From: Takakia lepidozioides
Taxonomy: Eukaryota > Plantae > Bryophyta
NCBI GenBank assembly: GCA_030704615.1
Contig: CM060732.1
Location: 54,188,001-54,252,000, forward strand
Direction of reading: 5' to 3'
DNA length: 64,000 bases
Each line of letters opens with the position of its first letter. Within the stretch, counting starts at the first letter, position 1. The translations under genes were made by a program, and so were the position numbers. The notes under the pieces were generated by a model, which ran no database searches, was not told the DNA's origin, and saw only the letters and a program-made list of their open reading frames with translations. Below are positions 25,783-64,000 of the stretch, one piece after another.

Positions 25783-31739
<5,957 letters not shown>

Positions 31740-42500: not shown

Positions 42501-45500
42501 ACCGCTTGCATGATGCACGATCGCATTTGTTTTGGGAGATGTTGAGAGTGTTGCGTGACTTGCAGACGAGGCAAGTGCAACCTCTAGCCTATATCTTGGG
42601 GAATGTTCCTCTTATGGGGGGCTCTCGGGCCAGGGTTATGGCCAGTGTGCATCAGGTGCGGTCTTGGATTGGATCGGCGGTGCTATTGGATGCAGCAGTG
42701 GTGGGATCATGAGCGCATCGACCTCGATTGTGGTGGACCAATTTTGCACCACCAGAGCTACTCAAGAGAGCATACAATTCCATTCAATGGCCACCCAATC
42801 TCACAGTTGAGAGCATTTTGGACCAAGGGAGGCAACCACAGAGGGTGCGACATGATGACCGTCCACCTCTAGCAGTGATAAATCGAGTGGGGCAGCCACG
42901 TGCGGCCTTGCCTACGCTCATGAGCTTTCCCTCGTCTCATGTTTTTCGAGACAATGGTCCTGGGTTGATTTGGGACAGTGTGCTACAGCAATTGGTAAAG
43001 CCCAATGCAGATGAGCAAGAGTGGGCAATGGGATTTGCCACGGGCACTACAGCTGTGCCAGCTCTATCAGAGGCATCACGCCGACATGTGTTGGGTCAAG
43101 CAATGGATCTAAATTGCTTGACATGGGTCATTGGCTTGTGCATGGCTAAGCAACAGAGGTTGCAGATAGTGGTGGCTACTTCTGCACTCCCATTTGGTAT
43201 TGTATCCCCTCTGCCAACCGGGACGGTTGAGGCAGTGAGTGGGGGCGAGCACATGATCATGGGGTGCAAACACCCATGGCAGATGTAGGATGAGATGCGG
43301 AAAAAGAGAGTCCTTGGATCTCTCAAGCAGCAATATGAGGAGTGGGGAGAGCCATATACTGAGGATCAGTTAGTGACCAAGGTGACCAATGTTTTTGAAG
43401 AGGTTGAGAATGTTTCTTCCCCAGAGGATGTTCTCAAGGTGGTTATGGCAGAGCAAGTGGAGGCTACGCCACAGTCAGATTGGGCGGACAAGGCCCAAGA
43501 GGTTGCTATCTAGCAACCAAAGGATTTGTCTCCTACCCCCAAGCCTGATGTACCCAAGGTTGCAGTCACTAAGGACAATTGGTAACCAGATGTTGGACCT
43601 ACAGTCACCGGAGGAGAGAGACGGAGGATCCAGCGATTTCTAAGGGCTTATAGAAATTGCTTTGCCTTCGGTTTAAAGGATTTGGGGAGTTTGAAGGGTC
43701 AGGAGATTCGTATTGATTTGGCAAGTGATACGCCAATCTTTTGAAGGCCCTACCGGTATAGTGACATGGAGAGGTCATTGATCTAGTCACGGACTATGGA
43801 GTTGTTCGAAGCTGGATTGGTGGAGTTGTCAGGCGGGGAGTATGCCTCGGCAACGGTGATGCTAGCTAAGAAGGATATCTATGGCAATTGGACAGAAAGA
43901 AGGATGTGTGGGGACTATCGTCCTGTGAACCGTCAGACTAAGTCCGATAGATATGCCATGCCAACTCCAAAGGAAATCTTTGATGCCATTGGGCATGCGA
44001 AGGTGTTTAGTATATTGGACTTGCGATCCAGTTACCACCAGTTGCCAATCAAAGAGGCTGACAAGCAAAAGATGGCATTCTGGGGGATTGACCAACATGG
44101 GAAGGATTCCTTGTACCAATGGCGCTTCCTACCGTTTGGGTCGAAGAATGCTCCTGCAGAGTTTCAGAGGGTTATGGATAGGATTCTCGCGGGGCTAGAC
44201 TTTGCCCGGTGTTACATTGATGACATCATCGTCTTTAGTGCTACGGTTTAGGAGCATGAGAGACACCTTCAGGTGGAGTTTGAGCGCTTGAGAGCGCATG
44301 GGTTGAAATTGCACCCTGGGAAGTGCAAGTTCTTCCACAACCAGATTGAGTATCTGGGCCACATGATATACCCTAGAGGATTGGGTGTTCAAAAGACAAA
44401 GGTGAAGGCCATTGCACGCATTCCACGCCCCATAGATGTTAGCAGAGTTCGTGCTTTCATGGGGTTGACAAACTACTATCGACGGTTTGTCAAGGGATTT
44501 AGCAGCATTACAAAGGCTCTTACTAAGTTGACCAAGGTGGGTCAGGAGTGGCAGTGGGAGGAGGAGCAGGAGGAAGCCTTTGAGGAACTCAAGGCTCGAT
44601 TGACTTCTGCACATATTCTGAGGCGGCCTATTCGGGGGCGGCCTTTCCAGCTACATACGGATTGGAGTATGCTGGGGATTGGAGTAGTGCTCACACAGAT
44701 GGATGGTGAGGGAAGAGAGTTCGTAGTGGCATATGCTAGCCGCTCAAACAATGATGCTGAGGCAAAGTATAGTTCCTATGAAGGGGAGTGTCTAGCTGCG
44801 GTATGGGCAGTGCCACATTTCAGATGCTACCTCTATGTCAATCTCTTCACCCTTATCATGGATCACCAACCATTGAAGTGGTTGAAGGAATCAGACAAGC
44901 TTACAAGGAAGCTTGCACGGTGGGCACTTATGCTTCAAGAATACGACTTTCAGGTGGTGCATCGAGCCGGTATTGTCAATCGGGATGCAGATGGATTGAG
45001 TCGTAATCCATGCACGAGCGAGCATGATGATACTGGAGCTTGGTGGCATGGTAAGACAGATGAGGAGATGGTGCCAGGATGGCATGCATCTGCCTTTTTG
45101 TGCATCCTAGCAATGGGAGCTCAAGCTGGTCCATCCCATAGCATTGGTCATGTAGATGGTATGCATGACGATCCGGAGATCAGTGAGGAGCTTGGTGGTG
45201 CTAAGGATGTGCATGAAGATGCAGCAGTGTTGGCCTACCTTCGTACTAGAGAGACAACAGCCAATGTGACTGCTAAGGAGAGAGATCGGATCCTACAAAA
45301 AGCCAAGAGGTTCAAGTGGGAGGGGACTCACCTACTCTGAGTATGGGAGGATGGACGAGTGAGGATTGTGCCTCATCCAACACAACGAGCGCGATTGGTA
45401 CGCCATGCCCATGAGGAGTTGGGACATTTTGGGGTGCGGCGCACTCATAGTTTGCTGCAAGGACAGTACTGGTGGCGGGGCATGCACACGGATGTGCAAT

Positions 45501-47214
45501 AGTTAGTGGCAAGGTGCATGATGTGTGATAGAGTGCGAGCTTCTTTCAATGCACCTACTCCATAATTGCATCATTTACCCATTATGGGTTTGGGCTATCG
45601 TTGGAGTCTTAACTTCGCAGGCCCATTGCCATTAACGATTCGCTATAACAAGTATGTGCTGGTGATGGTGGAACATTTCTCCAAGTGGATTGAACTGGTG
45701 GCATTGCCTGACAAGGCAAGTGAGGGGGCTGCGTATGCATTTTTAGATCGAGTGCTTAGCCAATTTGGTGCTCCAGCCGAGGTACTCACGGACCAGGGGA
45801 GAGAGTTCTTGGGGGAGTTTCAGGCGTTGTGTGAGCAAGCCTTGATAGATCACCGCACTACTACTCGGGATCATCCCGAGGCTAATGACTTGGCAGAGAG
45901 GGTTGTACAAACACTCAAGCGAGGCTTGCGCAAGTATGGCTTGCAGAAGGGACACTTAGGAGATTGGGACTTTCAGCTACCTTGGTTGGCCATGGGCTAT
46001 AGATTTAGCAAACAAGCATCACTTGCCTCGTTCTTGCCTTATTTCCTTCTTTTTGGCCGAGAGCCAGATTTGCCTGCATCTATTCGCAGGGAGACTGCAG
46101 TAGTTCTCAACCTTGATGATCCGGATGTGTGGATACAAGCATGTGCCCAGCGGGGTCGTTAACCATGACTAAAACCATGACAGCTGTCGTGCACCTAAAC
46201 ATCGTGCCATAATATACATCGTTGTCCACCATACATTCTAAGCACACAATCCTAGAAACCTATGCCACAATCGCCCCCCTAGCTGGTGATTAGGTCCCTC
46301 CAACACCGGATAACTGACAAGTATCCATCTCAATAAAATCATCGCTTGGTCTTCAATCGCACATGTCCTAGTATCTAAAATCAATAGATCAAGAGGCTGG
46401 GTGCAAAAGTAGCCCCATCGTTACTCGCCTTCCTGCAATCCATGATCTTCAATTAAGTATCCATGGCGTTGAGCTCCCATCAGCTAGACCTTGGATCACT
46501 TGTCAATTCCACCATTGTCATGCCCACTACCTATGTCCAAGGCATCGTGGACACAACCATTCTCCACTAGGAACCTTCTCAAGTGGCGGTGTCAAGCATC
46601 CCATGTGCCACCCCCTTGAGCATTTGTCACACACCAACATGGTCGCGGCACCACCAGCATACCCACATAGCATGTAACGCAACCCTGTAGGGTACCACTG
46701 CAAGGTTGGGATGTATCCTCCCATCCACATGTGGAAGGTGACATGGCGCACAATTGCGCACATGGTCTTTCCATACCATGCCATCTCGAATTACCTACTT
46801 CTAGTTAACTAGGACATTTTGGATATTTATATTTGTATTTTGTGTGTTGGGACTTCATTTGGTCTCACATGCCAAATGAGGTGTCAAACCTCACTTGGGA
46901 CATGGGGATGGGTTTTCCCCTTGTGAGTGTTGAGGAGGGCTCATCTTCTTGTAGTTGAGCCTCCATGAGCCTCCCCCACCTCCATAGCTCTAGGTATTGA
47001 GAGGGAGTGTGGTGAGGGCTTTGTAGGGTGGATTCCTTTAGCTAAGGTGCCCTTGGCTTGACTTGATTTATGTGATTGAGTGGATTCATGAGTGGAGTGT
47101 TTCCATTGTGTGTTCACTTTCATTATCATTGTGGCATAGGTTTCTAGGATTGTGTGCTTAGAATGTATGGTGGACAACGATGTATGTTGTGGCACAATGC
47201 TTAGGTGCACGACA
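36541..47214 (+). mobile_element. DNMT/PHD Ty3/Gypsy element copy 2 (full domain set, many stops, internal inversion ~46159-46786)
   Basis: A1 ~36541-36914; gag from 39295; protease LLDSGA in 41162-42172; DNMT ~42190-43140; RT (YIDD) 43796-44251; RNase H 44273-45340; integrase 45566-46155; PHD, PPT and B1 inverted; rest of A2 to 47128; B2 47129-47214 ending GACA. Confidence 0.92.
39295..46786 (+). pseudogene. Disrupted Gag-PR-DNMT-RT-RH-INT-PHD polyprotein of copy 2
   Basis: Collinear with copy 3. DNMT motif IV reads GWSCQ* and motif VI reads GNV (inactivated). PHD part lies on the - strand (46527-46784). Confidence 0.88.
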
Positions 47215-47381: not shown

Positions 47382-47909
47382 ATGCCTGTCAAATTACCAC
47401 ATGTCCTTCTGAACATTGCACCTGCCCTACTGGACATGTATGCCAAATGTGGGTGCATCGAGGATGCCAAGGGAGTGTTCAACATTGTGGCTGAACGAGA
47501 TGTGGTGTCGTGGAATGCGATGCTTGCAGGGTATGCACAGCTGGGGCGCGGGATGGAAGCTCCAACCTTTGAGCAAATGATGGGGGAAGGGGTGAAGGCC
47601 GCCGACATAATGTTTGTGTGCGTTTGCAGTGTGTCTGGCAGCCCTGGAATAGGGCAAAGAGATCCCTAGTAACATCAACAAATCTGCAACTGTACCAGAT
47701 GTCATCCTGAACATTGTTGTGGTGGCCATGTATGCTAAATGTGGGAGCATTGAGGATGCCAAGGGAGTGTTCAACACTATGGCTGAACCAGATGTGGTGT
47801 CGTGGAATGCGATGCTTGCAGGGTGTGTAGAGCAGGAGTGCGGGATGGGGCTTTGGACACCTAAAAGGGTGAAGGTACCTTCTTCATCATATTTCACCCT
47901 GTTTTCCCT
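47382..47909 (+). pseudogene. PLS-class PPR fragment (inverted paralog of 7266-7910)
   Basis: ALLDMYAKCGCIEDAKGVF...DVVSWNAMLAGYAQLG and AMYAKCGSIEDA units; interrupted by element copy 3. Confidence 0.85.
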
Positions 47910-48236
47910 TGTCAAGTTATTTTACCACTAGTGTGAAACTAGCTAGGAAATAGCTAGCTTTTACATATTGACATTTGGGATTGGCCCAAGTGTCAATCCA
48001 GGGGTCAAGGCAGATTTAGGCCCTGGAGTGGTTATATTCACGGCAAGCGCGGGAGGCTCATCTTTCTCGAGTTGAGCCTCACCGCGCCTAGCTATGGCGC
48101 CGTAGTGTGGATTCCCCATGGCGTGGGGTGCACTTGGCTTGACTTGTATTTGAGTGATGAGGTTATATATGCATGAGTTTATGCTTCAGCTTTGTGAGCT
48201 CGCATGAGCTTGTGCTTGTATTCTTCTTCTTTATCA
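47910..48236 (+). repeat. Terminal repeat A1 (327 bp)
   Basis: Direct repeat of 59042-59368. Confidence 0.95.
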
Positions 48237-48252
48237 CTCGAGAAAGATGAGC
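48237..48252 (+). promoter_or_regulatory. Putative self-primer binding site
   Basis: CTCGAGAAAGATGAGC directly after A1 is the exact reverse complement of 48056-48071; no TGG-starting tRNA PBS. Confidence 0.7.
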
Positions 48253-49772
48253 TCGTATCTATGAGTGCTAGATACGAGTTAGTTGTAGCACTTGTGGTTT
48301 TTGCTTGAGAATGAGAGAAACCAAGTTGTTATGCAAGGAGCACCGTGGAGCTCTTGGTTGTTAGAAGCGGAGGCGATGTGGGTTACGAGGTGGTAAACCT
48401 TGGCATTCGATCTTCAGCTTCAGAGATGAAAGCACCATACTGTAGGTAATTCCAGAGCACCTTGATGGTTTCAGATTGTGTACATGCATGAGCAAGCACG
48501 ATTGGGAAGAGGACCAGTCAAGAGCAGGTTATAGTGGCTTTGGTGGCAAAGCTGAGAACTGGACTTGGGAATGCGAGCTGTCATTGTGTGAAGGATTGCA
48601 AGACCAAGCGAAAGGGCTGATTTGGCTTGGGGCAAATCAGTGCACTTTGTGGAGTATGGTGAGATTGGGTTTCAATCTCGAGCTTCAGCATTGAGAGGGC
48701 TCTTGTCATGGCAAGAGCAGGGCTGGAACAGGAGCTAAGAGGTGCGGCAAGGCCATGGAATGTGCACCTAGGGTTTCAGAGCTTGGAAGAAGAGCTCTTG
48801 CACCACAAGAGAAGTGTCTTGTGGCTGGAAATGTAAGCCTTAGGGTTTCAGGAGCTTGGCAAGGGCTGTGGAGTGCTTAGTCTTGTCTTAGAGAGCATCA
48901 AGGAGCCAAGGAGCCAAGATAGGGGGCTGATATCTCTTGTGTGAAGAGGTTGCATGTGTGGAGCATGTATTCAGCTCATTGAAGCTTCCATCTTCAAGCT
49001 TGGAGGGCAAGCAAGGAAGAGGGAAGGGCTGACTTCCCTTATGTGAGGGCAATGTATGTGTGGAGCATGCTATCAGCCTGGTGAAGGCTTGCACTTTTAG
49101 GTGTGGGAGTGCAAGGAAGGAAGGAAGGGGCTGGTTTCCCTGTAGGGCATGTAGAGCATGCTTTCAGCCTGCTGAAGCTTGTATTTTCAGGTTTGTGGAT
49201 GCAAGAAATGAAGCAAAGGAGCTGATTCTCTTATGGTGAGAGTGGGGCATGTGTGGAGCATGCCTTCAGCCCATTGAGGCTCTTGTTTTCAAGCCTTAGA
49301 GAGCTAGAACGGAAGGTCTAGGGCTGGTTTCCACTTGGAGTGAAAGAAAAGCACTTGTAGGGCCTATGTGAGTTGGGGTTTCAACTTCAAGCTTGAAGGG
49401 AGCGCAACTCTTGAAGCAACAGGTGTAGAGGGCTGGAATAGGCTCTAAGACAGATGCTATGGCCAATGAGAGTGCTTGAATGAGTGCTCACAAGGGCTGG
49501 GAACCAGCAGGGCTTGGTTGTTTGCCATTGAGTTTAGTGGCGTGTTTGGGGAGGCTAAGTGAGAAAGAAGGCTTGGTTTGTGGCAACCACCTCATGGCTT
49601 AGGGCTACTATGGTGGTGTGTGGGAGCCGAAAGAGCAAGGATACCTTGCTGATTTCCTCACAGCCACCATAGCTCGGTGGAAAGAAGCCTAGAGTCCAAG
49701 AGACACAAACCCTAGCTTGGCGTGGCTAAACCCCTTGGAGAAATGGCTAAACTGCCAGAGCGGCCATGTGTG

Positions 49773-50552
49773 GGGCTGTGACAGGCTGTGGCAAGCTGTG
49801 ACGGGCTGTGGCAAGCTGTGACAGGCTGTGATGGGCTGTGATAGGCTGTGCCCAGTGGCCTGTGGGGCTGTGACGGGCTGTGACAGGCTGTGATGGGCTG
49901 TGATGGGCTGTGACAGGCTGTGCCCTGTGCCGTGTGGGGCTGTGACGGGCTGTGTCAGGCTGTGACAGGCTGTGCCCAGTGGCCTTTGGGGCTGTGACGG
50001 GCTGTGACAGGCTGTGACAGGCTGTGCCCTGTGCCCTGTGGGGCTGTGACGGGCTGTGAGGGGCTGTGACAGGCCGTGCCCATGGCCTTTGGGGCTGTGA
50101 CGGCTGTGAGGGGCTGTGACAGGCCGTGCCTGAGGCCTTTGAGGCTGTGAGGGGCTGTGAGGGGCTGTGACAGGCCGTGCCCTAGGCCTTTGAGGCTGTG
50201 ACGGGCTGTGATGGGCTGTGGCAAGCTGTGACAGGCTGTGATGGGCTGTGATGGGCTGTGACAGGCTGTGCCCTGTGCCCTGTGAGGCTGTGACGGGCTG
50301 TGAGGGGCTGTGACAGGCCGTGCCCATGGCCTTTGGGGCTGTGACGGGCTGTGAGGGGCTGTGACAGGCCGTGCCCATGGCCTTTGGGGCTGTGAGGGGC
50401 TGTGAGGGGCTGTGACAGGCCGTGCCCATGGCCTTTGGGGCTGTGACGGGCTGTGAGGGGCTGTGACAGGCCGTGCCTGAGGCCTTTGAGGCTGTGACGG
50501 GCTGTGAGGGGCTGCGACAGGCTGTGCCCAGTGGCCTGTGGGACTGTGACGG
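49773..50552 (+). repeat. Minisatellite of ~10-bp GGGCTGTGAC-type units with ~49-bp higher-order repeats in the leader of copy 3
   Basis: Dozens of GGCTGTGA units are visible. Confidence 0.92.
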
Positions 50553-51295
50553 CCTGACCAGTGAGCTGTGTGGGCCTGTGCTGGTTTGTGGTGGCCCGTG
50601 TTGACCTGTGGACGGCTTGTGCTGACTCGTGGAGGCACTGGTGGACTGCCTAAGGACTGGCATGTGGTCTAGAAGGCCGAATTTTGAAGCTCGTGGAGGG
50701 CGGTTTGAGGAGTATCTTCATGATATTCCCATGGTCATGCAAGTGAGGGTAGAGAGGAGAGGCAGAGTGTTGGGATGAGAGCATGCTGGGGTTAGGCATT
50801 GCTTTAGCTTCTCTTCCTCGTAGTTTCCACCCTCTCATTAGGCCAAGACCTTTCCGTAGGTGGAGGCAAGAGTCAGTCCGGGTTTGGGCTGGGGTGTCCT
50901 TGCAGGAGCAACACCGTGGAGTTGTTTTTGGTGTGGGGGAGTTGTCGATCTGATTTCTTGTGTTTGGATCCCCTCCATACCTGCATGCTTGACTGTGCGC
51001 CATGCTAGTTTTGTGTGGGCGCTTGTTTTTATAGGTGATTGGTCCGGATTTGATCACCGGCCAGTCCTAGAGCATGCTGTCGATGGTGAGGCTGGGGTGA
51101 TGACCAGCCAGACCATCATTGTTTCTCCTGTGGTGAGGTTGGAGGTGATGACCAGCCAACCATAGGAGTGCTTGCGGTGGATGCAGGTACAGGTGTAGGC
51201 TATGTTAGGAACTTAGTATTCCAAACCATAAGCCGCAACAGGTTCTCTACCCGGTTACCTTGTGGAGAGGGGGTTAGGGACATGTTCATGACCGG

Positions 51296-52729
51296 TTGAG
51301 TGTCAACACGGAGGTGCCACTAGTTGCTGGGGACAGTGCCGGTTCGAGCACTAGCGATACTAGTGGGTACACGAGACGAGGTGTGCGGTTTAGGCCACCT
51401 TCACCTCCTGTGTCTTCTACGGAAGGTTCTGATTCGGATTGTGAATCAGGAGGACTCATACCGGCGGTGCAAGTTGTTTCTTTGCCATTGTTGTGGGACA
51501 CAATGGAGGAGATGTATGGAGCTACCAAGGGGCCACGAAGGTACTCTGGGGCGGTGGGCACCATCGAGTTGGATGATTTTATCCAAGAGTTTGATAGTTG
51601 GTGTGATTTGCAGCAAATGCGCAATCCACAACTATTTACGCCTTTCATGGCATGGAAGGGGCTGTTTCAGCACCTTGAGGGGCCGCCTATGGATGATTAC
51701 CATGAGTTCAGGCGGGGGCATGAGGTTGAGATCGAGGAGTGGAGGATGTACTGGTCACCCGACTATGTCTCCATCACTAGGGGCACTAGAGCCACGAGGG
51801 CAGTGGCTACACCTGCCGCTGCACCGGCAGCTTCAGCAAGCAGCAGTGGGACTGGTGGTACAGTAGCTACGACGTCCACCCAAGCCACTACCGCACCAGC
51901 ACTAGCACCCGTGCCTGCCTTCAACCCTGTTGTGGAGTTCTTCGAAGAGTTGAGAGGGAACTACCAAGGGGTGAGGACAGAGAAGTTGCGGAGCTTGCAA
52001 GAGTTCCAACGGAAGCCGACCGAGAGCTTGAGGGAGGCTTTCACTCGCATGAGGCGCTTGATAAATGTAACCCAAGGGGTTACGGAAGCTCAGGCAGTCC
52101 AATTCTGGTATGGGATATTGGACAAGGAGCTGAGGAGAAGGGTGCGGGATGCAACTCTCCTACAAGCGGCCCAACCCACCTTAGCAAATGTGTTTTTGCT
52201 GGCAGAGCGGATAGAGCTCAACATGGTGGAGGAACGAGTGGTCATGGTGGGATTTGCTAAGGAGACACCACGGGGTAGTGGTGCTCCTAGCCAACCACTA
52301 CCTCAACGTGCTCAAGGCAACAAGGGGGCTCAGGTGAAGCTCAGGGAAGGGCAGAGAGGACCTCAGATGCAGGGGTCTCTCCCTTCATTTGCTGGCCAAC
52401 AACGGGCGGATGTGGTGTGCTGGACATGTGGAGGACCCCATGTCAAGAAGGATTGTCCAGAGGGAGGCAAAGGGCCGGCACATGCACAGCCTGCACAGTT
52501 ACAGTGTGGGCATTGTGGCAAACACGGGCATGGAGAGGCCAGTGTTATGGTTTGCATCCTGAGTTGCGCCCAGGCCAGTTCCAAGGGAACAATGGTGGCC
52601 GGGGGCGAGGTGGAGCAGCCCAGAGGGGACGAGGTGGCCAGCCACGAGGCCAAGGGCAAGCTCAACGTGGCCAAGGACGCGGAGGTCAGGGTGTTGACCA
52701 AGGCATGGCCAACCGGCTTCAGCAGCTAG
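51296..52729 (+). CDS. gag: Gag (capsid-like region + CCHC zinc knuckles) of copy 3; true frame shifts at ~52540
   Basis: FQRKPTESLREAFTRMRRL (retrotransposon gag-type motif), knuckle CWTCGGPHVKKDC, second knuckle CGHCGKHGH..C across a 1-nt deletion. Start codon uncertain. Confidence 0.85.
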   Translation: MSVNTEVPLVAGDSAGSSTSDTSGYTRRGVRFRPPSPPVSSTEGSDSDCESGGLIPAVQVVSLPLLWDTMEEMYGATKGPRRYSGAVGTIELDDFIQEFDSWCDLQQMRNPQLFTPFMAWKGLFQHLEGPPMDDYHEFRRGHEVEIEEWRMYWSPDYVSITRGTRATRAVATPAAAPAASASSSGTGGTVATTSTQATTAPALAPVPAFNPVVEFFEELRGNYQGVRTEKLRSLQEFQRKPTESLREAFTRMRRLINVTQGVTEAQAVQFWYGILDKELRRRVRDATLLQAAQPTLANVFLLAERIELNMVEERVVMVGFAKETPRGSGAPSQPLPQRAQGNKGAQVKLREGQRGPQMQGSLPSFAGQQRADVVCWTCGGPHVKKDCPEGGKGPAHAQPAQLQCGHCGKHGHGEASVMVCILSCAQASSKGTMVAGGEVEQPRGDEVASHEAKGKLNVAKDAEVRVLTKAWPTGFSS

Positions 52730-55509
52730 AGCAGAGGCTCGCTGCCATGGCTACAGCTCAGGTGGTACCGGCTCTAAGGCCGGATGGTCCACCTCCTGCT
52801 CCTGAGGGAGGAGATATGGGAGGCATGGGATTCATGTGTGGAGCAGCACTACCACTAGTGCAGGTGGAGTCTGCTGCAGCCGTGACTCGAGGAGCAGCAC
52901 GAGTTCCTGAGCCACGAGGTGCAGAGGTGGAGTTGGATCCACAGCGTGGGGAGGCAAGCCGTCAGGCTAGGCTTCCTCAGTCATTCACATTGGCGGAGAC
53001 AGTGTCGACGCCATCCATGGCACCTAGTTCTCGCCCGACTGTTACCGAGGCGGAGGTTACTATGCCATTGGGGAGAGCTACACGGGTAGCACCACTACCT
53101 AGTGTTGCCAAGGCTACGGCAGCTAGTGTGCTGCTAGGAGCGGCCACATCTGTGTGCCAGGCTCCATTGTTCTCGGCTACCATGATTGCGACGCCGGGGG
53201 TAAGACCAGCTGAGGTGTTCAGGCTGGCAGCTACACTCTGTGAGAGTGGGGAGGTTACTTCATCTTCTGCGGAGATAGTGGGAGGTGTAGTGCCGGAGGG
53301 ATCCTCGGATTTGAGGGTCAAGACTGCCACGGCGGCGCCATGGCAAGCTGCAGCTGCCAGGTTGATGGAGCTGCCAGCTAGGCCAGCCATTGAGCGCGCC
53401 ATGGTGACACCTGGAGTTGTCATGTTAGACAACCAGGATGGCATTTTCTGTTTGAGTGGACCGGCAGGCAAGAGGTACCGGCCACTGCGAGTCTTGTTGG
53501 ACTCGGGAGCTCAGCCACTGATGCTGGGCAGAGCTGCTATTGCAGGCTTGGGCCTCACGGAGGCGGATATGGAGCCTTGTCCTTTCCAGATACAGACGTC
53601 TCTGGGAGGATCGGAGCAGGCTCGGGGCATGACACGGCATGAGTTGGCTATCAGACTACGGCCGGATCACCCTACAGATGGCTCAGTGATGCGAGCCAAG
53701 GCCATTGTGACAGACGCAGTCTCATACGATGTCCTGGTTGGTGGGGCAGTGTTGTACCCCATGGGCTTCACCCTGGATTTTTGGGAGGAGTCAGCTTCCT
53801 ATAGGCCTGCATGGCAGTCAGGGGAGGGCCGGCGTGTGCAGCTCCCTGTGACGTTCATAGGAGGAGTTGCGGTTGCCCAGCGAGGCAAGATGCCGACACT
53901 AGCAGCATTCACAGCGGCAGTGAGTTGGCCTAGAGAGTTGCTTGAGGGCAATGCTCATTCAGAGGATGTACCACCTCCGGGAGAGCAGGATGACATGTAT
54001 GGTATGGCGGAGTTGCCTACCATGGTTGCTCAGACTCCATTGTGGGGCACGAGCAAGGATTTGCAGCGGGATGCTGATCGACGGGTGCAACAAGCCTGGG
54101 TGGAGGCTTTTGTACCGTCAGGAGAGGAGGAGAGTGTGGGATTGCACCAGGACCACCTCAATTGTCTCCATTGGACACCACACCTATTGTGTGGCAGTCC
54201 GGATGAAGGCATTTGTCTTCTGGACTTGTTTGGCGGGATCAGCACCGGATTGGCTGCTGTGTTACAGGCAGGTGTACGAGTTCGGCGTTACCTGTATGTG
54301 GAGAGGGATGAGACTGCACGACGCGTTTCACTTCGCCATGTTGCTCAGTTGGTGCAGCGGTACCCTGAGTTGTTGTCGGTGTCTGCAATTCGTGGATATC
54401 AGCAGGCCTTGCCAGCAGACATTTCGTTGCTGGGGGCGCAGGATTTGGAGCGGGTTGGCTCCATTGATCTGGTAGTGGCAGGTTGGCCCTGCCAAGGGCA
54501 TTCATCAGCCGGGCATGGCAATGGATTGCGAGACTCGAGGTCGGGTCTGTTTTGGGAGATGGTGCGGGTTTTGCGCCACTTGCAGCTTCATCAAGCTGTA
54601 TCTCCAGCATACATCTTGGAGAATGTGCCACTGATGGGCGATTCTCGGGCCAGGGTGATGGCCAGTGTGCATCAAGTCCGGTCGTGGCTTGGGTCAGCAG
54701 TGTTGCTAGATGCAGCTACAGTGGGGTCACGGGCTCATCGTCCACGGCTATGGTGGACTAACATGATGCCACCCGCACTGCTCAAGCGTGCATTTGATGG
54801 GGTGCAGCGGCCAGCACATCTCACAGTGGATAACATTCTGGACACAGGGAGGCAGTCTCAACGTGTGAGACACGATGACCGTTCGCCTTTGGCAGTGGTC
54901 AACAAGGTGGGTCAACCACGAGCAGCATTACCTACACTGCTCAGCTTCCCAGGATCGCATGCTTTCCGGGATAGTGGACCTGGCCTCCTGTGGGATGCTC
55001 AGTTGCAGCAGTTAGTGGAGCCTAATGCTGACGAGCGTGAGCGGGCAATGGGTTTTACCACTGGTACCACGGCGGTGTCGTCTCTTTCTGAGGCATCACG
55101 TCGTCAAGTGTTGGGGCAAGCAATGGATCTCAATTGCTTGACCTGGATTATCAGCTTGGCTCTAGCTGAGCAACGCAGAGTGCGGAATACACTTCCCTCA
55201 ATGGTCTCTCTGCCTACCGAGACGGTACAGGCAGTGAGTGGGGGCGAGCATATGAGGACCACGGGGTGCATGCATCCATGGCACACGTGGGAGGTGCTCG
55301 AGGTTCAGAGGGAGTTGGCAGCCAAGGCGGCTGTGATGGATGAGGTTGGGGATTCTTCTCGAGTTGAGGAGGTCCTCAAGGATGAGATGATGGGGCAGGA
55401 TGATGCCTTGTCATTGACTGAGCAGGAGGGAGTACTGCTCAAGAGGTTGCAGCATAGCAACCACGGGACGCGTCCTCTACCTCTAAGCCCACTGGACTTA
55501 AGGTTGTAG
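52417..55509 (+). CDS. Polyprotein segment: RGG-rich Gag tail, aspartic protease, DNMT3-like C5 cytosine methyltransferase (~54208-55170)
   Basis: Protease VLLDSGAQP...VLVGG. MTase motifs in canonical order: I LLDLFGGISTG, II YVERD, IV DLVVAGWPCQGHS, V SRSGLFWE, VI YILENV, VIII AHRPRLWWTN, IX ERERAMGF, X RRQVLGQAM. Confidence 0.93.
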   Translation: MLDMWRTPCQEGLSRGRQRAGTCTACTVTVWALWQTRAWRGQCYGLHPELRPGQFQGNNGGRGRGGAAQRGRGGQPRGQGQAQRGQGRGGQGVDQGMANRLQQLEQRLAAMATAQVVPALRPDGPPPAPEGGDMGGMGFMCGAALPLVQVESAAAVTRGAARVPEPRGAEVELDPQRGEASRQARLPQSFTLAETVSTPSMAPSSRPTVTEAEVTMPLGRATRVAPLPSVAKATAASVLLGAATSVCQAPLFSATMIATPGVRPAEVFRLAATLCESGEVTSSSAEIVGGVVPEGSSDLRVKTATAAPWQAAAARLMELPARPAIERAMVTPGVVMLDNQDGIFCLSGPAGKRYRPLRVLLDSGAQPLMLGRAAIAGLGLTEADMEPCPFQIQTSLGGSEQARGMTRHELAIRLRPDHPTDGSVMRAKAIVTDAVSYDVLVGGAVLYPMGFTLDFWEESASYRPAWQSGEGRRVQLPVTFIGGVAVAQRGKMPTLAAFTAAVSWPRELLEGNAHSEDVPPPGEQDDMYGMAELPTMVAQTPLWGTSKDLQRDADRRVQQAWVEAFVPSGEEESVGLHQDHLNCLHWTPHLLCGSPDEGICLLDLFGGISTGLAAVLQAGVRVRRYLYVERDETARRVSLRHVAQLVQRYPELLSVSAIRGYQQALPADISLLGAQDLERVGSIDLVVAGWPCQGHSSAGHGNGLRDSRSGLFWEMVRVLRHLQLHQAVSPAYILENVPLMGDSRARVMASVHQVRSWLGSAVLLDAATVGSRAHRPRLWWTNMMPPALLKRAFDGVQRPAHLTVDNILDTGRQSQRVRHDDRSPLAVVNKVGQPRAALPTLLSFPGSHAFRDSGPGLLWDAQLQQLVEPNADERERAMGFTTGTTAVSSLSEASRRQVLGQAMDLNCLTWIISLALAEQRRVRNTLPSMVSLPTETVQAVSGGEHMRTTGCMHPWHTWEVLEVQRELAAKAAVMDEVGDSSRVEEVLKDEMMGQDDALSLTEQEGVLLKRLQHSNHGTRPLPLSPLDLRL

Positions 55510-55616
55510 TTACGGAGGACAATTGGGAGCCTGACATTGGACCCATTGTCACCGGAGGAGAGAGACGACGTATACGGCGGTTCCTGAGGGCTTACAGGAA
55601 TTGCTTTGCCTTCAGT

Positions 55617-56348
55617 TTGAAGGACTTGGGAGCACTGAAGGGTCAAGAGATCCGTATTGAGTTGGCCACTGACACGCCAATCTTTCGGAGACCCTATAGA
55701 TACAGTGACATGGAGAGGTCTTTGATTCAGATGAGGACTCAAGATCTCTGGGAGGCAGGTTTGGTGGAGCTCTCTGGTGGAGAGTATGCTTCAGCCACAG
55801 TGATGCCAGCCAAGAAGGATGTCTATGGCAATTGGACGGAGAGACGTATGTGCGGTGATTACCGGCCTGTAAATCGTCAGACCAAGTCCGATAAGTATGC
55901 CATGCCAACACCAGAGGAGATCTTTGATGCCATCGGGCATGCTAAGGCCTTTAGCACTTTGGATTTACGATCCGGATATCACCAGTTGCCAATCAAGGAG
56001 GCGGACAAGCAGAAGACGGCATTCTGGGGGATCAATGAGCACGGCAAGGATTGCCTATATCAGTGGCGGTTCTTACCATTTGGGCTTAAGAATGCTCCTG
56101 CAGAGTTTCAGAGAGTCATGGATAGGATTCTAGCAGGGGTGGACTTTGCTCGGTGCTACATAGATGACATCATCATCTTTAGTGTTACGATGGAGGAGCA
56201 TGAGAGACACCTTCAGGTGGTATTGGAGCGCTTGAGAGCGCACGGATTGAAGTTGCATCCGGGGAAGTGCAAGTTTTTCCACAACCAGATTGAGTATCTG
56301 GGTCACATGATATATCCTGGAGGATTGGGGTACAGCAGACTAAGGTAG
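55617..56348 (+). CDS. pol: Reverse transcriptase (Ty3/Gypsy type) of copy 3
   Basis: RMCGDYRPVN, LDLRSGYHQ, KTAF, LPFGLKNAPAEFQ, YIDDIIIFS, KCKF..IEYLGH. Confidence 0.95.
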   Translation: MKDLGALKGQEIRIELATDTPIFRRPYRYSDMERSLIQMRTQDLWEAGLVELSGGEYASATVMPAKKDVYGNWTERRMCGDYRPVNRQTKSDKYAMPTPEEIFDAIGHAKAFSTLDLRSGYHQLPIKEADKQKTAFWGINEHGKDCLYQWRFLPFGLKNAPAEFQRVMDRILAGVDFARCYIDDIIIFSVTMEEHERHLQVVLERLRAHGLKLHPGKCKFFHNQIEYLGHMIYPGGLGYSRLR

Positions 56349-56380
56349 AGGCCATTGCACAAATTCCACGCCCCACGGAT

Positions 56381-58591
56381 GTGAGCCGAGTTCGAGCTTT
56401 CATGGGGTTGGCAAACTATTATAGACGGTTTGTCAAGGGATTTAGTACCATTGCAAAGGCTCTAACCAAGCTGACCAAGGTGGACCAGGAGTGGCAGTGG
56501 GAAGATGAGCAGGAACGAGCTTTTCAAGAGCTCAAGGCGAGGTTGACCTCGGCGCCTATCTTGAGACGACCTATCAGGGGGCGTCCCTTTCAGCTGCATA
56601 CGGATTGGAGCATGCTGGGGCTTGGAGCGGTGCTCACACAGGTGGATGATGAGGGAAGAGAGTTCGTAGTGGCTTACGCTAGCCGCTCGAACAACGCTGC
56701 AGAGGCTAAGTACAGCTCATATGAGGGAGAGTGCTTAGCTGCAGTGTGGGCCGTGGCACACTTCAGGTGCTATCTATACGGCAATCTTTTCACCCTTGTC
56801 ACGGATCACCAGCCACTCAAGTGGTTGATGGAGTCAGACAAGCTTACAGGGAAGCTTGCACGGTGGGCACTTATACTCCAGGAGTATGACTTTCAGGTTG
56901 TGCATCGACCGGGTTTGGTCAATCGGGATGCGGATGGATTGAGTCGCAATCCATGCATGAGCCAGCAGGATGACACTGGAGCTCGGTGGCATGGTGAGAC
57001 GGACGAGGAGATGGTGCCGGGATGGCACGCATCTGCATTTTTGTGTATCTTGGCATCGGGAGGTCAGATTGGACCTACAACAGGGATGACTGTAGACGGA
57101 GTGTCTGAGGACCCTGAGGCTAGTGATGAGCTAGGTGGTGCCAGAGATATACATGAGGATTCGGCTGTGTTGGACTACCTCCGCACGGGAGACACGGCAG
57201 CCATTGTGACTGCCAGGGAGAGGGATCGGATCCTGCAACGAGCCAAGAGGTTCAAGTGGGAGGGGATACACCTACTTCGAGTGTGGGAGGATGGTCGGGT
57301 GAGGATTGTGCCTCACCCCACACAGCGTGCACGGTTAGTGCGGCATGCCCATGAGGAGTTGGGGCATTTTGGAGTGCGACGCACTCACAGTTTACTGCAG
57401 GGGCAGTATTGGTGGCGTGGTATGCATACAGAGGTGCAACAGTTTGTGGCTAGGTGCATGGTGTGTGACAGGGTGCGTGCTTCATTCAACGCCCCTACAC
57501 CACAGTTGCATCCTTTACCTATCATGGGATTGGGCTACAGGTGGAGTCTTGACTTCGCAGGACCGTTGCCACTGACTATGCGCCACCACAGATATGTGTT
57601 GGTGATGGTGGAGCACTTCTCCAAGTGGATTGAGTTGGTTCCATTGCCTGACAAGGCTAGTGAGGGGGCTGCGTATGCATTCTTGGATCGTGTGCTTAGC
57701 CGATTTGGTGCTCCAGCTGAGGTACTCACGGACCAAGGGAGAGAGTTCTTGGGGGAGTTTCAGGCTTTGTGTGATAAAGCCTTGATAGACCACCGCACCA
57801 CTTCTCGGGATCATCCTGAGGCCGATGGCTTAGCAGAGAGAGTTGTTCAGACGGTGAAGAGGGGTTTGCGCAAGTATGGCTTGCAGAAGGGACACCTAGG
57901 AGATTGGGATCTTCAGGTTCCTTGGTTAGCCATGGGCTACAGGTTCAGCAAACAAGCATCACTTGCCTCCTTCTCACCATATTTCCTTCTCTTTGGCCGA
58001 GAGCCGGATTTGCCTGCAGCCATTCGTAGGGACACTGCTCAAGTCCTTAACCTTGACGATCCGGACGTGTGGGTACGTGCATGTGATCAGCGTGCAGAGT
58101 TGTTCAAGAAAGTCATGCCCATGGCTTTTGAGAACCTTGCCATTGCACAGCACCGTGATACGTTGAGGTATGCCACTATACGTGGTGGAGGATATCGTCC
58201 TGGGGTTCGGAGGTTTAGCCCTGGTGACTATGTTTATTTGCAGCAGACTGCTCCTACGACTCTGGATGTTACTGCAGGGCGTGTTATTCTGAGGGTTCGA
58301 GAGGTGTTGCCCTCAGGGGTCCTGATCTTGGAGGGTCGGGATGGCATGACTTGGAAGGACCATGTGCGTAATTGTGCGCCATGTCACCTTCCCAATGTCG
58401 ATGGCAGAGTTGACCCAAACTTGGCAGTGGTACCTGCAGGTTTGAGGTGCATGCTCTGTGGGTCTGCCAAAGGGGCAGCCACCATGCTGGTGTGTGATCG
58501 ATGCTCAAGGGGTTGGCATATGGGATGCTTGACACCACCTCTTGAGAAGGTTCCTGACGGAGATTGGTTGTGTCCACACTGCTTGGGATAG
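56381..58591 (+). CDS. pol: RNase H - DDE integrase - C-terminal PHD finger of copy 3
   Basis: LHTDWS, YEGECLA, TDHQPL, DADGLSR; HHCC (HEELGH...CMVC); SLDFAGP, TDQGREF, DGLAER; C4HC3 PHD CMLC...CDRC..GWHMGC...WLCPHC at 58448-58588. Confidence 0.95.
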   Translation: MSRVRAFMGLANYYRRFVKGFSTIAKALTKLTKVDQEWQWEDEQERAFQELKARLTSAPILRRPIRGRPFQLHTDWSMLGLGAVLTQVDDEGREFVVAYASRSNNAAEAKYSSYEGECLAAVWAVAHFRCYLYGNLFTLVTDHQPLKWLMESDKLTGKLARWALILQEYDFQVVHRPGLVNRDADGLSRNPCMSQQDDTGARWHGETDEEMVPGWHASAFLCILASGGQIGPTTGMTVDGVSEDPEASDELGGARDIHEDSAVLDYLRTGDTAAIVTARERDRILQRAKRFKWEGIHLLRVWEDGRVRIVPHPTQRARLVRHAHEELGHFGVRRTHSLLQGQYWWRGMHTEVQQFVARCMVCDRVRASFNAPTPQLHPLPIMGLGYRWSLDFAGPLPLTMRHHRYVLVMVEHFSKWIELVPLPDKASEGAAYAFLDRVLSRFGAPAEVLTDQGREFLGEFQALCDKALIDHRTTSRDHPEADGLAERVVQTVKRGLRKYGLQKGHLGDWDLQVPWLAMGYRFSKQASLASFSPYFLLFGREPDLPAAIRRDTAQVLNLDDPDVWVRACDQRAELFKKVMPMAFENLAIAQHRDTLRYATIRGGGYRPGVRRFSPGDYVYLQQTAPTTLDVTAGRVILRVREVLPSGVLILEGRDGMTWKDHVRNCAPCHLPNVDGRVDPNLAVVPAGLRCMLCGSAKGAATMLVCDRCSRGWHMGCLTPPLEKVPDGDWLCPHCLG

Positions 58592-58840
58592 TGGCAGTGG
58601 ACATGACTGGAGGCAGCTAACAAGACATGGGAGGCCAAGCTCATAGGAGTCAATACATGAGATCCCAAGCTCAAGTTCACAGGTTGCAAGACGGCGACTA
58701 ACGATGGGGCAACTCTTGCACCCGGCCTCTTGATCTATCGAGTTTGAGTGTAGTAGGGATAGTGGTGGAGGACTTAGTGAGGCTATGGTCACTATCACAT
58801 CTTGTGGCTACCTGGACTTAGAGGGACCTAAGCACCAGCT

Positions 58841-58850
58841 AGGGGGGCGA
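58841..58850 (+). promoter_or_regulatory. Polypurine tract (plus-strand primer) preceding B1
   Basis: AGGGGGGCGA immediately before B1; identical in copy 1 (31986-31995) and copy 2 (inverted, 46271-46280). Confidence 0.75.
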
Positions 58851-59557
58851 TTGTGTGGACTAGTGACTGCCATAGTGGGCAGCGTAGTGGCAGCCTAGTG
58901 ACTGACTAGTTGTAGCCTAGTGGTTGGACTAGTGGCTGGACTAGTGGTAGACTAGTGGTATACTAGTGTGTGGTGTGCACATGTGTTGTGTGGTTTTGGA
59001 CAGCGATGTAGTTGTGTAGCGATATGTATGCGCACGACAGCTGTCAAGTTATTTTACCACTAGTGTGAAACTAGCTAGGAAATAGCTAGCTTTTACATAT
59101 TGACATTTGGGATTGGCCCAAGTGTCAATCCAGGGGTCAAGGCAGATTTAGGCCCTGGAGTGGTTATCTTCACGGCAAGCGCGGGAGGCTCATCTTTCTC
59201 GAGTTGAGCCTCACCGCGCCTAGCTATGGCGCCGTAGTGTGGATTCCCCATGGCGTGGGGTGCACTTGGCTTGACTTGTATTTGAGTGATGAGGTTATAT
59301 ATGCATGAGTTTATGCTTCAGCTTTGTGAGCTCGCATGAGCTTGTGCTTGTATTCTTCTTCTTTATCATTGTGTGGACTAGTGACTGCCATAGTGGGCAG
59401 CGTAGTGGCAGCCTAGTGACTGACTAGTTGTAGCCTAGTGGTTGGACTAGTGGCTGGACTAGTGGTAGACTAGTGGTATACTAGTGTGTGGTGTGCACAT
59501 GTGTTGTGTGGTTTTGGACAGCGATGTAGTTGTGTAGCGATATGTATGCGCACGACA
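58851..59557 (+). repeat. 3' repeat block B1-GC-A2-B2
   Basis: B = 189 bp rich in CTAGTG; palindromic B1/A2 junction GACAGCTGTC at 59036-59045. Confidence 0.95.
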
Positions 59558-61168
59558 CCCTGCTAGTGTTTGCTTTGACAATTCTAGGCTGTCATTGTCA
59601 AGGATGTATGCATGATTTGGGTAGAGGCATGGATAGCTGAAGGAGCAGGGATTTCGTGTGGGTCCAGATTCATCCAAGAGGACCAGATTTCAAGCACAAG
59701 ATTACCTGTGATTCCCTGTGGATCAATAGCTACAAGAAACCTGCATGGGTAGATGGTCAATTGGAAGCAGCGGCACAAGTGATAAAATCAGGCACTGCTA
59801 ATGAAGGCATCTTCTTCAACACATTTCACCCTGTTTTTCCCTCTTATCAAGATCGGCCCTAAATTTACATGTTCAATTCTGCAAGTTAGCTGGTTGAGTG
59901 AATCTAGTTTGGAGTGACTTTGACATGATACTGTCAATGTGACAACAGGAAAGTGTCAAAAAATAGGTAACAGAGATGAGGAGAAGTTGTGGAATAAATA
60001 CTTATCTGAGCCCAGTCACTGATGGGTCAACCGGGGCAGAAAGGTGAATGCCTGCTACATTTTAGAGAGTAGCAGACGCAATTCAGCATAGAAACTAGTG
60101 TGCTACGCTGAGTTGGGTGTTTCCTAGAACAAATGTAGGCTGTCATTGTCAGCTGCTAGTAGCAAGGCAAGTGAATGCTTGATTTGTGCAGAGGCATGGA
60201 TAGCTGAAGGAGTAGAGATAGAATGTGGGTGACGCAGGGTGCTGGGCAATGGGCAAGACATCTTTGTATAAACGTGAGTAACCTTCCTATCCTCCTAGCT
60301 CTCATTTTTAGTGCATGTTTCTTTGTGAAGTATCTGACGACTTCGCAAACACACCAACCTTTTTGCTTTGGTTTGTTTACGAGTCCATGGGATAGAAGTT
60401 ACCATAAACAACACTGGCATTGGTTTTTCATATATGGTATTAGATAATTCTCTTAATTGTTTCCGCCTTGGCAGGTTGCTCAGTGAGTCCCACCACGTGA
60501 TGAGTCGCTTTGGAGTATAGCGAGTGAATGTCTCACAATGCAATGTTGGTTGGTGCATCTTATGCAAGAACTTGGAAAACAAACAGATGTCCTTGCTGTA
60601 GTAATTCTTAAAGCCATGCAAGCCTTAGTTTTTGATGGGTTGCAGATTGATGGAATACATGAGTACTTAGAAGATTCTGGGTGAACTCTTTTCAAAGTGT
60701 TATAGTTAGACAATATTATTCATGAGAACATGTGACTATTTTATGTATTTTTAGATCGCGACAAAAATGATAATGATAAATAGATTGGTAAATAGAGATG
60801 GTGTACAATCTCTTGGTTTTGCTAAGCTTGTTGCAGTTATGTCTTGCTGCCTTGTTCTCTTTGTATTATATATTATATTTCATTGTTGTAATAGACATGT
60901 ACATGACTGCTATCAGAGTCATAATAATGACTACATCTATTTTCACTCTCCAATAGTACTACACCACGTGGCAGAAATACATATATGTAAAAAAATAGCA
61001 ATACACCCAAAAAAACACCCATCATGACACATGTCAATCTGTTGAGGGACCATGTGTAAAAACTGCAATGCGCCACATGTTGCAACCGGATTAGCATGCC
61101 CGTAGTCATAGTTCGCAATCATGGAGAGCAAACACTCTGCCATGTGTCATTTCCTGTATCGAGCACGT
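59558..61168 (-). repeat. Inverted duplication copy 2, last segment (corresponds to ~5734-7363)
   Basis: Reverse-complement match, with mirrored ORF peptides. Confidence 0.88.
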
Positions 61169-61444: not shown

Positions 61445-62425
61445 CTAAAAAATGAAGCGACGATAGTAAGAACCCAAGCCTAAGAAGGCTTTAACGCATG
61501 TTTTATCCCGAGGGGCTGGATAGTTCCACACAGCTTGGATCTTTGCAGGGTCAGGACTGATGCCAGCAGCAGAAAGCAGATGGCCCAAGAAATGGAGCTG
61601 TTCCATACAAAAATCACACTTCTTGGCTTTAACCTTAAGCCCAGCTGCACGAAGTCTGCACACAACCCGCTGTAAGTCCAACAGATGGGCATCAAACGTT
61701 GTAGAGTAAATGTTGATGTCATCGATGTAAACCAAGGCACATTCCCAACGAAGGTTTCCTAAAACAATATCCATTAGGCGCTGAAATGTGGCAGTGGCAT
61801 TGCAAAGGCCAAAAGGCATGGTTTCAAATTGCAAGAGGCCCATCGTGCAGGTGAAGGCAGTTTTCTCTTTAGCAGCAGCAGTTAAAGGAACTTGCCAAAA
61901 GCCAGAGGCTAAATCTAAGGAAAAGAAGATAGTGGCCCCATTAAGTTGATCGAGCGTTTCATTGATGCGTGGCAAAGGGTAAACATCCCTCTTAGTGATG
62001 GCATTTAAATGCCGAAAATCAACGCAAAAACGGGTGGAGCCATCCTTCTTACCCACCAAGACAATGGGACTAGCCCAAGGGGATATGGAGGGGGTGATTA
62101 TACCAGCATCAAGCATCTTCGTAAGCTCATCCTGAATGACCTTGCGTTCACGGACACTCTCCCTGTAGGCATGTTGTTTGATAGGCTTACCATCCGTGAT
62201 GATGTCATGATCCAGAAGGGTGGTGCGGCCCAAGTCATGAAGCCCTTGACTAAAGATGTCGAGATTGTCACGGAGAAACTGGTGCAGGCGATTAATCTGC
62301 TGGGGAGCAAGGTGATCACCCACCTTGATATCCTGCCTCAGGAAGCGGGCCTTTGTCAGTGGAACCAGAGTGAGAGGCAAAGGCCTGGAGTTAGTCCACA
62401 GGGGAGTCCACCAGCCCAATATCAT
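61445..62425 (-). CDS. pol: Reverse transcriptase (truncated pol)
   Basis: SPWASPIVLVGKKDGSTRFCVDFRHLN, LDLASGFWQ, MPFGLCNA, YIDDI, FLGH. Confidence 0.9.
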   Translation of the reverse strand: MILGWWTPLWTNSRPLPLTLVPLTKARFLRQDIKVGDHLAPQQINRLHQFLRDNLDIFSQGLHDLGRTTLLDHDIITDGKPIKQHAYRESVRERKVIQDELTKMLDAGIITPSISPWASPIVLVGKKDGSTRFCVDFRHLNAITKRDVYPLPRINETLDQLNGATIFFSLDLASGFWQVPLTAAAKEKTAFTCTMGLLQFETMPFGLCNATATFQRLMDIVLGNLRWECALVYIDDINIYSTTFDAHLLDLQRVVCRLRAAGLKVKAKKCDFCMEQLHFLGHLLSAAGISPDPAKIQAVWNYPAPRDKTCVKAFLGLGSYYRRFIF

Positions 62426-63973: not shown

Positions 63974-64000
63974 AACCGACTTACAAATTGCAGTTTGTAA

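Follow-up and report, generated by a model that had tools for sequence, protein, structure and literature searches.

The methyltransferase-bearing element and its coding region

We analysed a window of 64,000 nucleotides from the bryophyte Takakia lepidozioides (GenBank assembly GCA_030704615.1, contig CM060732.1, positions 54,188,001 to 54,252,000 of the forward strand), and identified at positions 47910-59557 of this window a Ty3/Gypsy retrotransposon that encodes a DNMT3-like C5 cytosine methyltransferase (MTase). The element is the third of three related copies in the window (copy 3), all on the plus strand. Its domains read, in order, Gag, protease (PR), MTase, a stop codon, reverse transcriptase (RT), RNase H (RH), a DDE-type integrase (IN) and a PHD finger, spread over four overlapping open reading frames (ORFs) in the ORF list. 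Pfam searches of these ORFs matched DNA_methylase (PF00145; E 2.1e-12, 47.6 bits against a cut-off of 22), RVT_1 (E 6.6e-34), RT_RNaseH (E 8e-36), Integrase_H2C2, rve and PHD (PF00628; E 1.2e-10); the match to Retrotrans_gag was weak (E 0.0023, under the curated cut-off). The protease gave no Pfam match in the four ORFs, and was placed at 53401-53850 from a DSGA motif (53500-53511) and from the relatives P0189, P0208 and P0166, which have Pfam aspartyl-protease matches at the homologous place.

The first coding unit, ORF1 (51503-55457), carries Gag, two CCHC knuckles, PR and MTase and terminates at a TAG codon (55455-55457), its start being placed provisionally at the first in-frame ATG; in relatives, Gag-PR-MTase is a single continuous ORF of 1250-1450 amino acids. 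The second, ORF2 (55458-58591), carries RT (YIDD at 56157), RH and an integrase with HHCC and D-D-E signatures that ends in the PHD finger, and contains one frame break. Upstream of ORF1, a 3-kb 5' leader includes a 10-bp tandem array of GGCTGTGACA-like units (49774-50556). The domain set, coordinates and motif positions given in the original prediction all hold, whereas the continuous polyprotein from Gag to integrase that it described is contradicted by a conserved in-frame stop after the MTase; the four ORFs with their frame breaks, the stop and the split terminal repeats described below had been overlooked.

The methyltransferase is DNMT3-like and maintained by selection

The MTase domain (54199-55170) lies in one frame, with intact catalytic motifs in the non-permuted order that had been predicted: FGGISTG (54229-54249), PC (54487-54492), ENV (54619-54627), AHRPRLWW (54733-54756), ERERAMGF (55033-55056) and RRQVLGQ (55099-55119). 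The closest solved structures by sequence were DNMT3A (E 1.4e-11) and then DNMT3B (2e-8), with weaker matches to DRM (5e-6 to 1e-4) and M.HhaI (4e-4). Foldseek searches with an AlphaFold model of the domain (pLDDT 71.6) returned DNMT3A, DNMT3B or DNMT3C in all 40 matches listed from the top 50 ranks, the best being to DNMT3A (E 2.9e-12, TMq 0.62). By sequence and predicted fold, the domain thus appears to have DNMT3 as its nearest class, ahead of DRM (the contrast first proposed), DNMT1 and the bacterial enzymes. The clusters obtained from an Atlas search were all generic DNA_methylase ones, including one from Streptophyta, and no host protein named as DNMT3 was returned among the homologue searches.

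Of 92 related MTase domains, 88 retain the catalytic cysteine and 90 the glutamate of ENV; the two arginines of the RxR motif are present in 89 and 88. The ratio of nonsynonymous to synonymous divergence (dN/dS), calculated with our own Nei-Gojobori script, is 0.09 for the MTase of copy 3 against copy 2 (RT 0.06, IN 0.07), 0.25 against copy 1, and 0.04-0.17 for the five of eight metagenome loci in which dS was not saturated. These conserved catalytic residues and low ratios indicate that the MTase is a selected part of the family, under purifying selection, and bear out the prediction of a fixed family feature. Copies 1 and 2 do carry the domain in the corresponding position, as had been stated, but in both it has decayed, with stops in each, a frameshift in copy 1, and a change of PC to SC in copy 2.

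A conserved stop codon separates the methyltransferase from reverse transcriptase

The sequence TAG-CAA-CCA lies in frame between MTase and RT in all three window copies (55455-55463 in copy 3). Among 80 metagenome loci, 53 hold both the end of the MTase and the start of RT, and in 51 of the 53 the nearest in-frame stop upstream of RT is TAR-CAR-YYN at the homologous place, the second codon after the stop specifying Pro, Leu or Ser and always being pyrimidine-pyrimidine. MTase and RT share one frame in 40 of the 53, and the stop was found in relatives down to 51% MTase identity. The strict form CAR-YYA occurs in five, including the three most distant (CAG-TTA twice and CAA-TCA). Full-length Gag-PR-MTase relatives terminate 66-183 amino acids past the MTase, according to the tree labels.

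In tobacco mosaic virus (TMV), readthrough requires CAR YYA after UAG, reaches about 10%, and is abolished by a change of the first C (PMC2754532; here and below, statements on published systems concern the accessible parts of the papers cited). The conserved in-frame stop therefore suggests that the MTase is likely to be produced at the level of Gag, with RT and IN likely to depend on readthrough. The stop context is held in common with the TMV type, for which rice gypsy candidates are mentioned in the same paper, but in copy 3 it divides Gag-PR-MTase from RT, and would set the dosage of the MTase. We attribute a second TAG-CAA-CCA, before the MTase of copy 2 (42170), to decay: the corresponding codon of copy 1 encodes Trp.

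A single continuous polyprotein, in which the MTase would appear at the level of Pol alone, alongside RT, and the stop would be a product of decay, has parallels in the Klebsormidium clade and other relatives, in which MTase and RT occupy one ORF (P0202, P0203, P0211, P0206, P0189, P0205 and P0208), and in some Marchantia models (P0126, P0127 and P0131), which join the two domains without the linker in a manner that looks like predicted splicing. It is nevertheless very improbable, given that the stop holds its position across the window copies, nearly all the loci and their most distant members, and that full-length relatives end shortly past the MTase; for the clade of copy 3 it is already contradicted. 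In the Klebsormidium-clade proteins the MTase continues into RT without a break, so that the stop marks the clade holding the bryophyte elements (support 0.998 in the RT tree).

Pol could otherwise arise by splicing, the conserved TAG acting as a 3' acceptor and the MTase possibly being dropped from the Pol precursor. The TAG ends in AG, a T-rich run stands just upstream of it in the main locus clade, and the TAA variants seen at some loci can be decay; splicing between protease and RT is known in Ogre-type elements. Against this, the sequence upstream of the stop is purine-rich in the window copies, the conserved CAR-YY that follows the stop is, in the lineages farthest removed, a perfect match to the readthrough consensus (CAG-TTA, CAA-TCA and CAA-CCA), and splicing would have no need of the common frame of MTase and RT in 40 of 53 loci, and we regard a spliced Pol as unlikely.

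Split terminal repeats and integration signals

The repeats of copy 3 are arranged as A1-internal-B1-GC-A2-B2. A target-site duplication, CCCT, flanks the element (47906-47909 and 59558-59561), and where the homologous host repeat is uninterrupted, near 7360, CCCT occurs once. Repeat A1 (47910-48236; 327 nt, TGTCA...TATCA) forms the left end and probably comprises promoter, R and U5. Directly 3' of it lies a primer-binding site (48237-48253) of the self-priming rather than the tRNA type, complementary to a segment within A (48055-48071) that is likely to be both the 5' end of the transcript and its self-primer. The pairing extends over a 17-nt run with 16 Watson-Crick pairs, and is found in the minimum-energy fold (z -6.7) and absent from the centroid; in five of eight elements, with three different sequences, the bases after A1 pair 176-186 nt from the end of A.

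At the other end, a polypurine tract, AGGGGGGCG (58841-58849), stands directly before B1 (58851-59039; 189 nt), as it also does before B in the loci. B1 is joined to A2 (59042-59368) by the palindrome GACA-GC-TGTC (59036-59045), the halves of which are the right and left termini of the element, and B2 (59369-59557) forms the right end in ...GACA. Copy 1 has the palindrome at 32078 and copy 2 at 46179, and it is kept in the distant relatives L045 (51% MTase identity) and, with one change, L034; the same right end is found in copy 1 and, partly inverted, in copy 2. Copy 3 hence has a primer-binding site, a polypurine tract, TG..CA ends and a 4-bp duplication, and does not have two complete direct long terminal repeats (LTRs) at its ends. 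Its proteins make it a Gypsy element; its repeat structure is not that of a canonical LTR element.

By the positions of the primer-binding site and polypurine tract, the LTR produced in reverse transcription is B-GC-A. The 4-bp duplications, in copy 3 and in seven distinct locus elements with both ends (exact in five, with one mismatch in two), instead flank the start of A and the end of B, and B plus GC before the left A repeat was found in 0 of 23 cases (20 distinct sites). As the LTR defined by the reverse transcription signals is B plus A, yet the duplications flank the halves of the palindrome, the cDNA was likely circularised and reopened there. In the L032/L036 insertion, 9 nt of the primer-binding site are retained within an A|B junction. 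A staggered cut after each CA of the palindrome would yield ordinary processed ends, in line with established integrase chemistry. The integrases of foamy virus and HIV-1 can likewise cut palindromic LTR-LTR junctions with two CA ends, giving processed ends (PMC1180852, PMC1905944). In those viruses, however, the palindrome is the junction of the ends defined by reverse transcription and its use a route beside linear integration; in copy 3 it lies inside the LTR so defined, and is apparently the sole site used.

The split repeats could alternatively stem from template switching on a transcript running from A1 into B2, on the model of PAT/Ngaro elements, which would give A...B ends with no need to ligate an LTR-type cDNA of the ordinary kind. 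The A-coding-B-A-B layout is that of DIRS-type elements, and template switching would also account for the absence of the mirror form considered below (0/23). The primer-binding site after A1 and the polypurine tract before B1 fit LTR-type synthesis with an LTR of B plus A, however, the primer-site remnant of L032/L036 fits end-joining, and a DDE integrase and 4-bp duplications are present where Pfam found no tyrosine recombinase in the four ORFs of copy 3. We hold this alternative to be possible, if doubtful.

Among 16 right ends, seven run on as B-GC-A and nine end at B. Those ending at B without A2-B2 are L015, L018, L024, L026, L027, L038, L063, L074 and L077, of which L018, L027 and L038 are A-internal-B forms with a 4-bp duplication. 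This count leaves aside L020 (contig ends), L023 (partial), L054 (no polypurine-tract flank) and the rearranged L044/L047, and L032/L036 was handled separately.

State of the three copies and their surroundings

Repeats A1 and A2 of copy 3 are identical at 326 of 327 nt and B1 and B2 over all 189, a single difference in 516 nt, indicating that the insertion is young. Copy 3 contains no decay stops, but its frame is broken by small changes in five places: near 52538, at 54137 and 54197 (a compensating pair just upstream of the MTase), near 55426 and near 56326-56329. At these sites copy 3 differs from copies 1 and/or 2, as it does from contigs from three studies (one possibly the window's own source), and the breaks therefore belong to copy 3 or its sub-lineage. 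They may be assembly errors, although copy 2 is free of frameshifts throughout 1883 codons and the duplicated repeats are free of indels. Being frame-broken, copy 3 is as assembled not autonomous by itself, so that the recent activity originally proposed is right for the family and for the age of the insertion but not for copy 3.

Copy 1 (23236-32531) has a truncated A1, has lost most of RT and RNase H, and retains an intact right end, B-GC-A-B (B-A-B at 31997-32531). It is a mosaic, its protease-MTase region (27582-30006) being 92% identical to copy 3 and the rest 93-98% identical to copy 2, which indicates that the PR-MTase module has been exchanged between subfamilies. A direct repeat of another element surrounds copy 1 (21978-22453 and 33408-33876, 90% identical); we rejected it as the A repeats of copy 1, given that copy's own B-A-B. 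Copy 2 (36541-47214), of the other subfamily, stays in a single frame for 1883 codons, beginning at the second zinc knuckle and reaching the integrase; 13 in-frame stops interrupt it, one of them the conserved stop at 43511. A 3' inversion (46158-46789) takes in the end of its integrase, the PHD finger, B1 and the palindrome.

The PHD finger of copy 3 (58448-58582) forms the C-terminus of the integrase, the place taken in chromoviruses (Tcn1 and others) by a chromodomain, and has all its C4HC3 ligands. The nearest solved PHD fingers are those of CHD4, KDM5B/A (PHD1), PHF12, ATXR5, DPF3 and PHF21A, several of which read H3 tails without K4 methylation, so the element may be targeted to silent chromatin. 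Copies 2 and 3 are both inserted, at points about 700 bp apart, in one other repeat, which lends chromatin targeting weak support at most. This repeat is 4.6 kb long (5734-10328) and carries pentatricopeptide repeat (PPR) fragments (7613-7903; PPR E 1.8e-7); its inverted copy (34254-61168) is the target of both insertions. In green-algal transposons, PHD fingers have been described as accessory domains (PMC8557442).

Elsewhere in the window, a second Gypsy-type element on the minus strand (61445-64000) encodes protease, dUTPase (E 1.6e-8) and RT and runs off the window. Exon-like ORFs of probable host genes lie at 12357-21228, with no firm Pfam match; those at about 17-21 kb look phosphoesterase-like and may belong to a plant-type gene, and one on the minus strand (13232-13552) looks glyoxalase-like.

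Relatives and evolutionary distribution

Named homologues with 49-78% identity were identified in Marchantia polymorpha, M. paleacea, Calypogeia fissa, Riccia sorocarpa and several Sphagnum species. In the MTase tree, the window copies fall together with Marchantia, Calypogeia and Sphagnum sequences (FastTree support 0.97-1.0), and in the RT tree with Marchantia elements, which together with the PPR fragments and the putative plant-type gene agrees with the land-plant setting originally supposed. At least 15 gene models of Marchantia polymorpha belong here by name (e.g. Mp4g09160, Mp8g17980, Mp6g11220 and Mp2g26090), and a literature search on four Marchantia gene ids found no paper. In the gene models of Marchantia, Calypogeia, Riccia and Sphagnum, close relatives of copy 3 have gone unrecognised.

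The wider family comprises 444 clusters at 50% identity (E up to 1e-30), with related MTase domains in Monoraphidium and Cymbomonas gene models. The MTase tree places the window copies and Klebsormidium nitens among elements with the MTase before RT (0.79-0.93), and the RT tree joins the stop clade to the K. nitens clade and RT-RH-MTase elements (0.96). A second architecture, RT-RH-MTase-IN-PHD, is the commonest among the long representatives (29/79), and includes P0153, P0154, P0159, P0160, P0162, P0204, many of P0226-P0362 and one Monoraphidium model; its grouping with the K. nitens clade in the RT tree suggests that the MTase may have moved within Pol. These trees have midpoint or single-outgroup roots and contain no MTase-less Gypsy references, with P0206 assumed to be a copy of KnitGypsy-Dnmt3, the K. 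nitens element considered below. Rows covering fewer than 240 MTase residues or 180 RT residues, and unnamed proteins shorter than 600 amino acids, were dropped, and the proteins from the wider-family search entered the RT tree only. A search of viral contigs gave three pattern matches, none of them confirmed. One protein, P0174, combines RT-like, cytosine MTase and Dam adenine MTase domains and resembles dual-methylase elements; another, P0019, labelled as from a Candidatus Obscuribacterales metagenome-assembled genome, nests with locus L034 and is likely to be eukaryotic DNA in a bacterial bin.

Relation to known elements

The family of copy 3 is probably a land-plant relative of KnitGypsy-Dnmt3 of K. 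nitens, which has Dnmt3 in a Gypsy Pol, a Ka/Ks below 0.2 and DIRS-like repeats (PMC5890265), and the kinship with a charophyte element that had been proposed is supported. The two share the Gypsy domain set, a non-rearranged Dnmt3-like domain under purifying selection and split repeats, and the K. nitens protein KFL_009030040 has the same PR-MTase-RT-RH-IN order, with 45% MTase identity over 78% of the query. In KnitGypsy-Dnmt3, however, the MTase is part of the Pol ORF, whereas in copy 3 it ends the Gag-PR frame before the conserved stop; not being continuous with RT, it makes copy 3 a variant of KnitGypsy-Dnmt3 and not a plain member. Neither a primer site nor a target duplication is described in the accessible text on KnitGypsy-Dnmt3, nor are a palindrome, an integration route or a PHD finger.

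Split direct repeats of the form A-coding-B-A-B and a Dnmt3 domain are also found in SymbioDIRS-Dnmt3 and PAT/Ngaro-like elements, from which copy 3 differs in its DDE integrase, 4-bp duplications, and LTR-type primer site and polypurine tract. Those elements use a tyrosine recombinase, with circular intermediates expected, and are not known to make a target duplication. Self-priming is shared with the Tcn1 and Tf1-Sushi Gypsy elements of non-seed plants (PMC6317226), which are chromoviruses with ordinary LTRs, whereas copy 3 has a PHD finger, an MTase and split repeats.

The words 'PHD' and 'methyltransferase' appear nowhere in the REXdb paper (PMC6317226), and land-plant elements of this kind are unmentioned in the accessible parts of PMC5784723, PMC6453930, PMC11982613 and PMC6317226. 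Our literature search, which left most subscription papers and Repbase/Dfam outside its scope, returned no land-plant description, readthrough report or integration model. KnitGypsy-Dnmt3 is cited for streptophytes by PMC12344493, and 'streptophyte Gypsy-DNMT3' is a name used in bioRxiv 10.64898/2026.05.21.726589, a label that may already take in land plants. The kind of element has been known since 2018; added here are its bryophyte range, which includes a genetic model, the Gag-side stop, likely self-priming and sequence evidence for the use of an internal palindrome by a DDE integrase, probably on a circle.

Proposed life cycle and its alternatives

Our preferred reading, to which we give a probability of about two in three, is that copy 3 is a young, frame-broken copy of a bryophyte Ty3/Gypsy element in which the MTase ends the Gag-PR frame, Pol is made by readthrough, and the cDNA is circularised and reopened at the palindrome. 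Transcription would begin within A, about 180 nt from its end, the transcript would prime its own reverse transcription after A1, the plus strand would start at the polypurine tract before B1, and ordinary reverse transcription would then yield B-GC-A / internal / B-GC-A. Both ends of this cDNA would be joined into an A|B junction, and integrase would make a staggered cut after each CA of GACA|GC|TGTC at the upstream palindrome and join the resulting ends to the target. As most ribosomes would stop after the MTase, particles would contain the MTase at the level of Gag, and RT and integrase at a fraction of it. The MTase, perhaps released by the protease and packaged as originally proposed, may methylate new cDNA in the particle or the nucleus, so that each copy would arrive pre-marked, and the PHD finger, by analogy with its relatives, probably binds H3 tails without K4 methylation.

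Several observations weigh against this reading. Forty-eight of 52 stop-bearing loci form one star-like clade, leaving only about four independent locus lineages besides the two window subfamilies, and the commonest stop context is CAA-CCC (44/53) and not the strict CAR-YYA. The TAA variants are scattered, with G-to-A change at the TAG sites (33%) within the background (2-40%); we therefore rejected them as proof against splicing, and a splice acceptor keeps what probability it has. The self-priming pairing failed in three of the eight elements tested. The nine A-internal-B right ends could be products of one-LTR circles or of later B1 x B2 recombination, and the mirror form expected from a symmetric two-LTR circle, with the other palindrome cut, was seen in 0 of 23 cases. 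The observed/expected CpG ratio is 0.44-0.52, against 0.35 in a neighbouring Gypsy element without an MTase; with depletion no stronger than in that neighbour, there is no sign of self-methylation, and CpG depletion was rejected as proof of it. KnitGypsy-Dnmt3, lastly, gave no methylation in yeast, a result that its authors consider inconclusive, as DNMT3B also failed (PMC5890265).

These last points bear on whether the MTase might be kept for binding DNA, RNA or S-adenosylmethionine, or as a component of the particle, and not for methylating cDNA. The inactivity of the algal homologue in yeast (PMC5890265), a Gag-level dose exceeding the need of a catalyst, and the lack of extra CpG loss are all consistent with such a role. 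We nonetheless find it improbable, as the catalytic cysteine, glutamate and RxR arginines are kept in 88-90 of 92 domains and SymbioDIRS-Dnmt3 domains methylate CG de novo (PMC5890265). A bolder version of the preferred reading, in which the bryophyte lineage would integrate only through circular cDNA and methylation by capsid-level MTase would pick which of the identical palindromes is cut, in the manner of restriction-modification, is offered tentatively and seems to us rather unlikely; the palindrome does hold CAG/CTG sites.

Implications

What DNMTs carried by retrotransposons do has been an open question since 2018, in part because the known hosts are algae that are hard to work with. As the family is present in Marchantia polymorpha, it can be tested in a genetic model. 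The Marchantia models could be taken for host methyltransferases; the five host enzymes listed in the accessible part of the 2018 methylome paper do not include any of these element models. If the stop is indeed leaky, the MTase would be made at capsid dose, which narrows its possible function. LTR-finding tools would likely miss elements with split repeats, or misplace their boundaries. Taken together, the split ends and integrase-type duplications suggest that a natural element uses circles for integration, a route that has been under debate in retroviruses.

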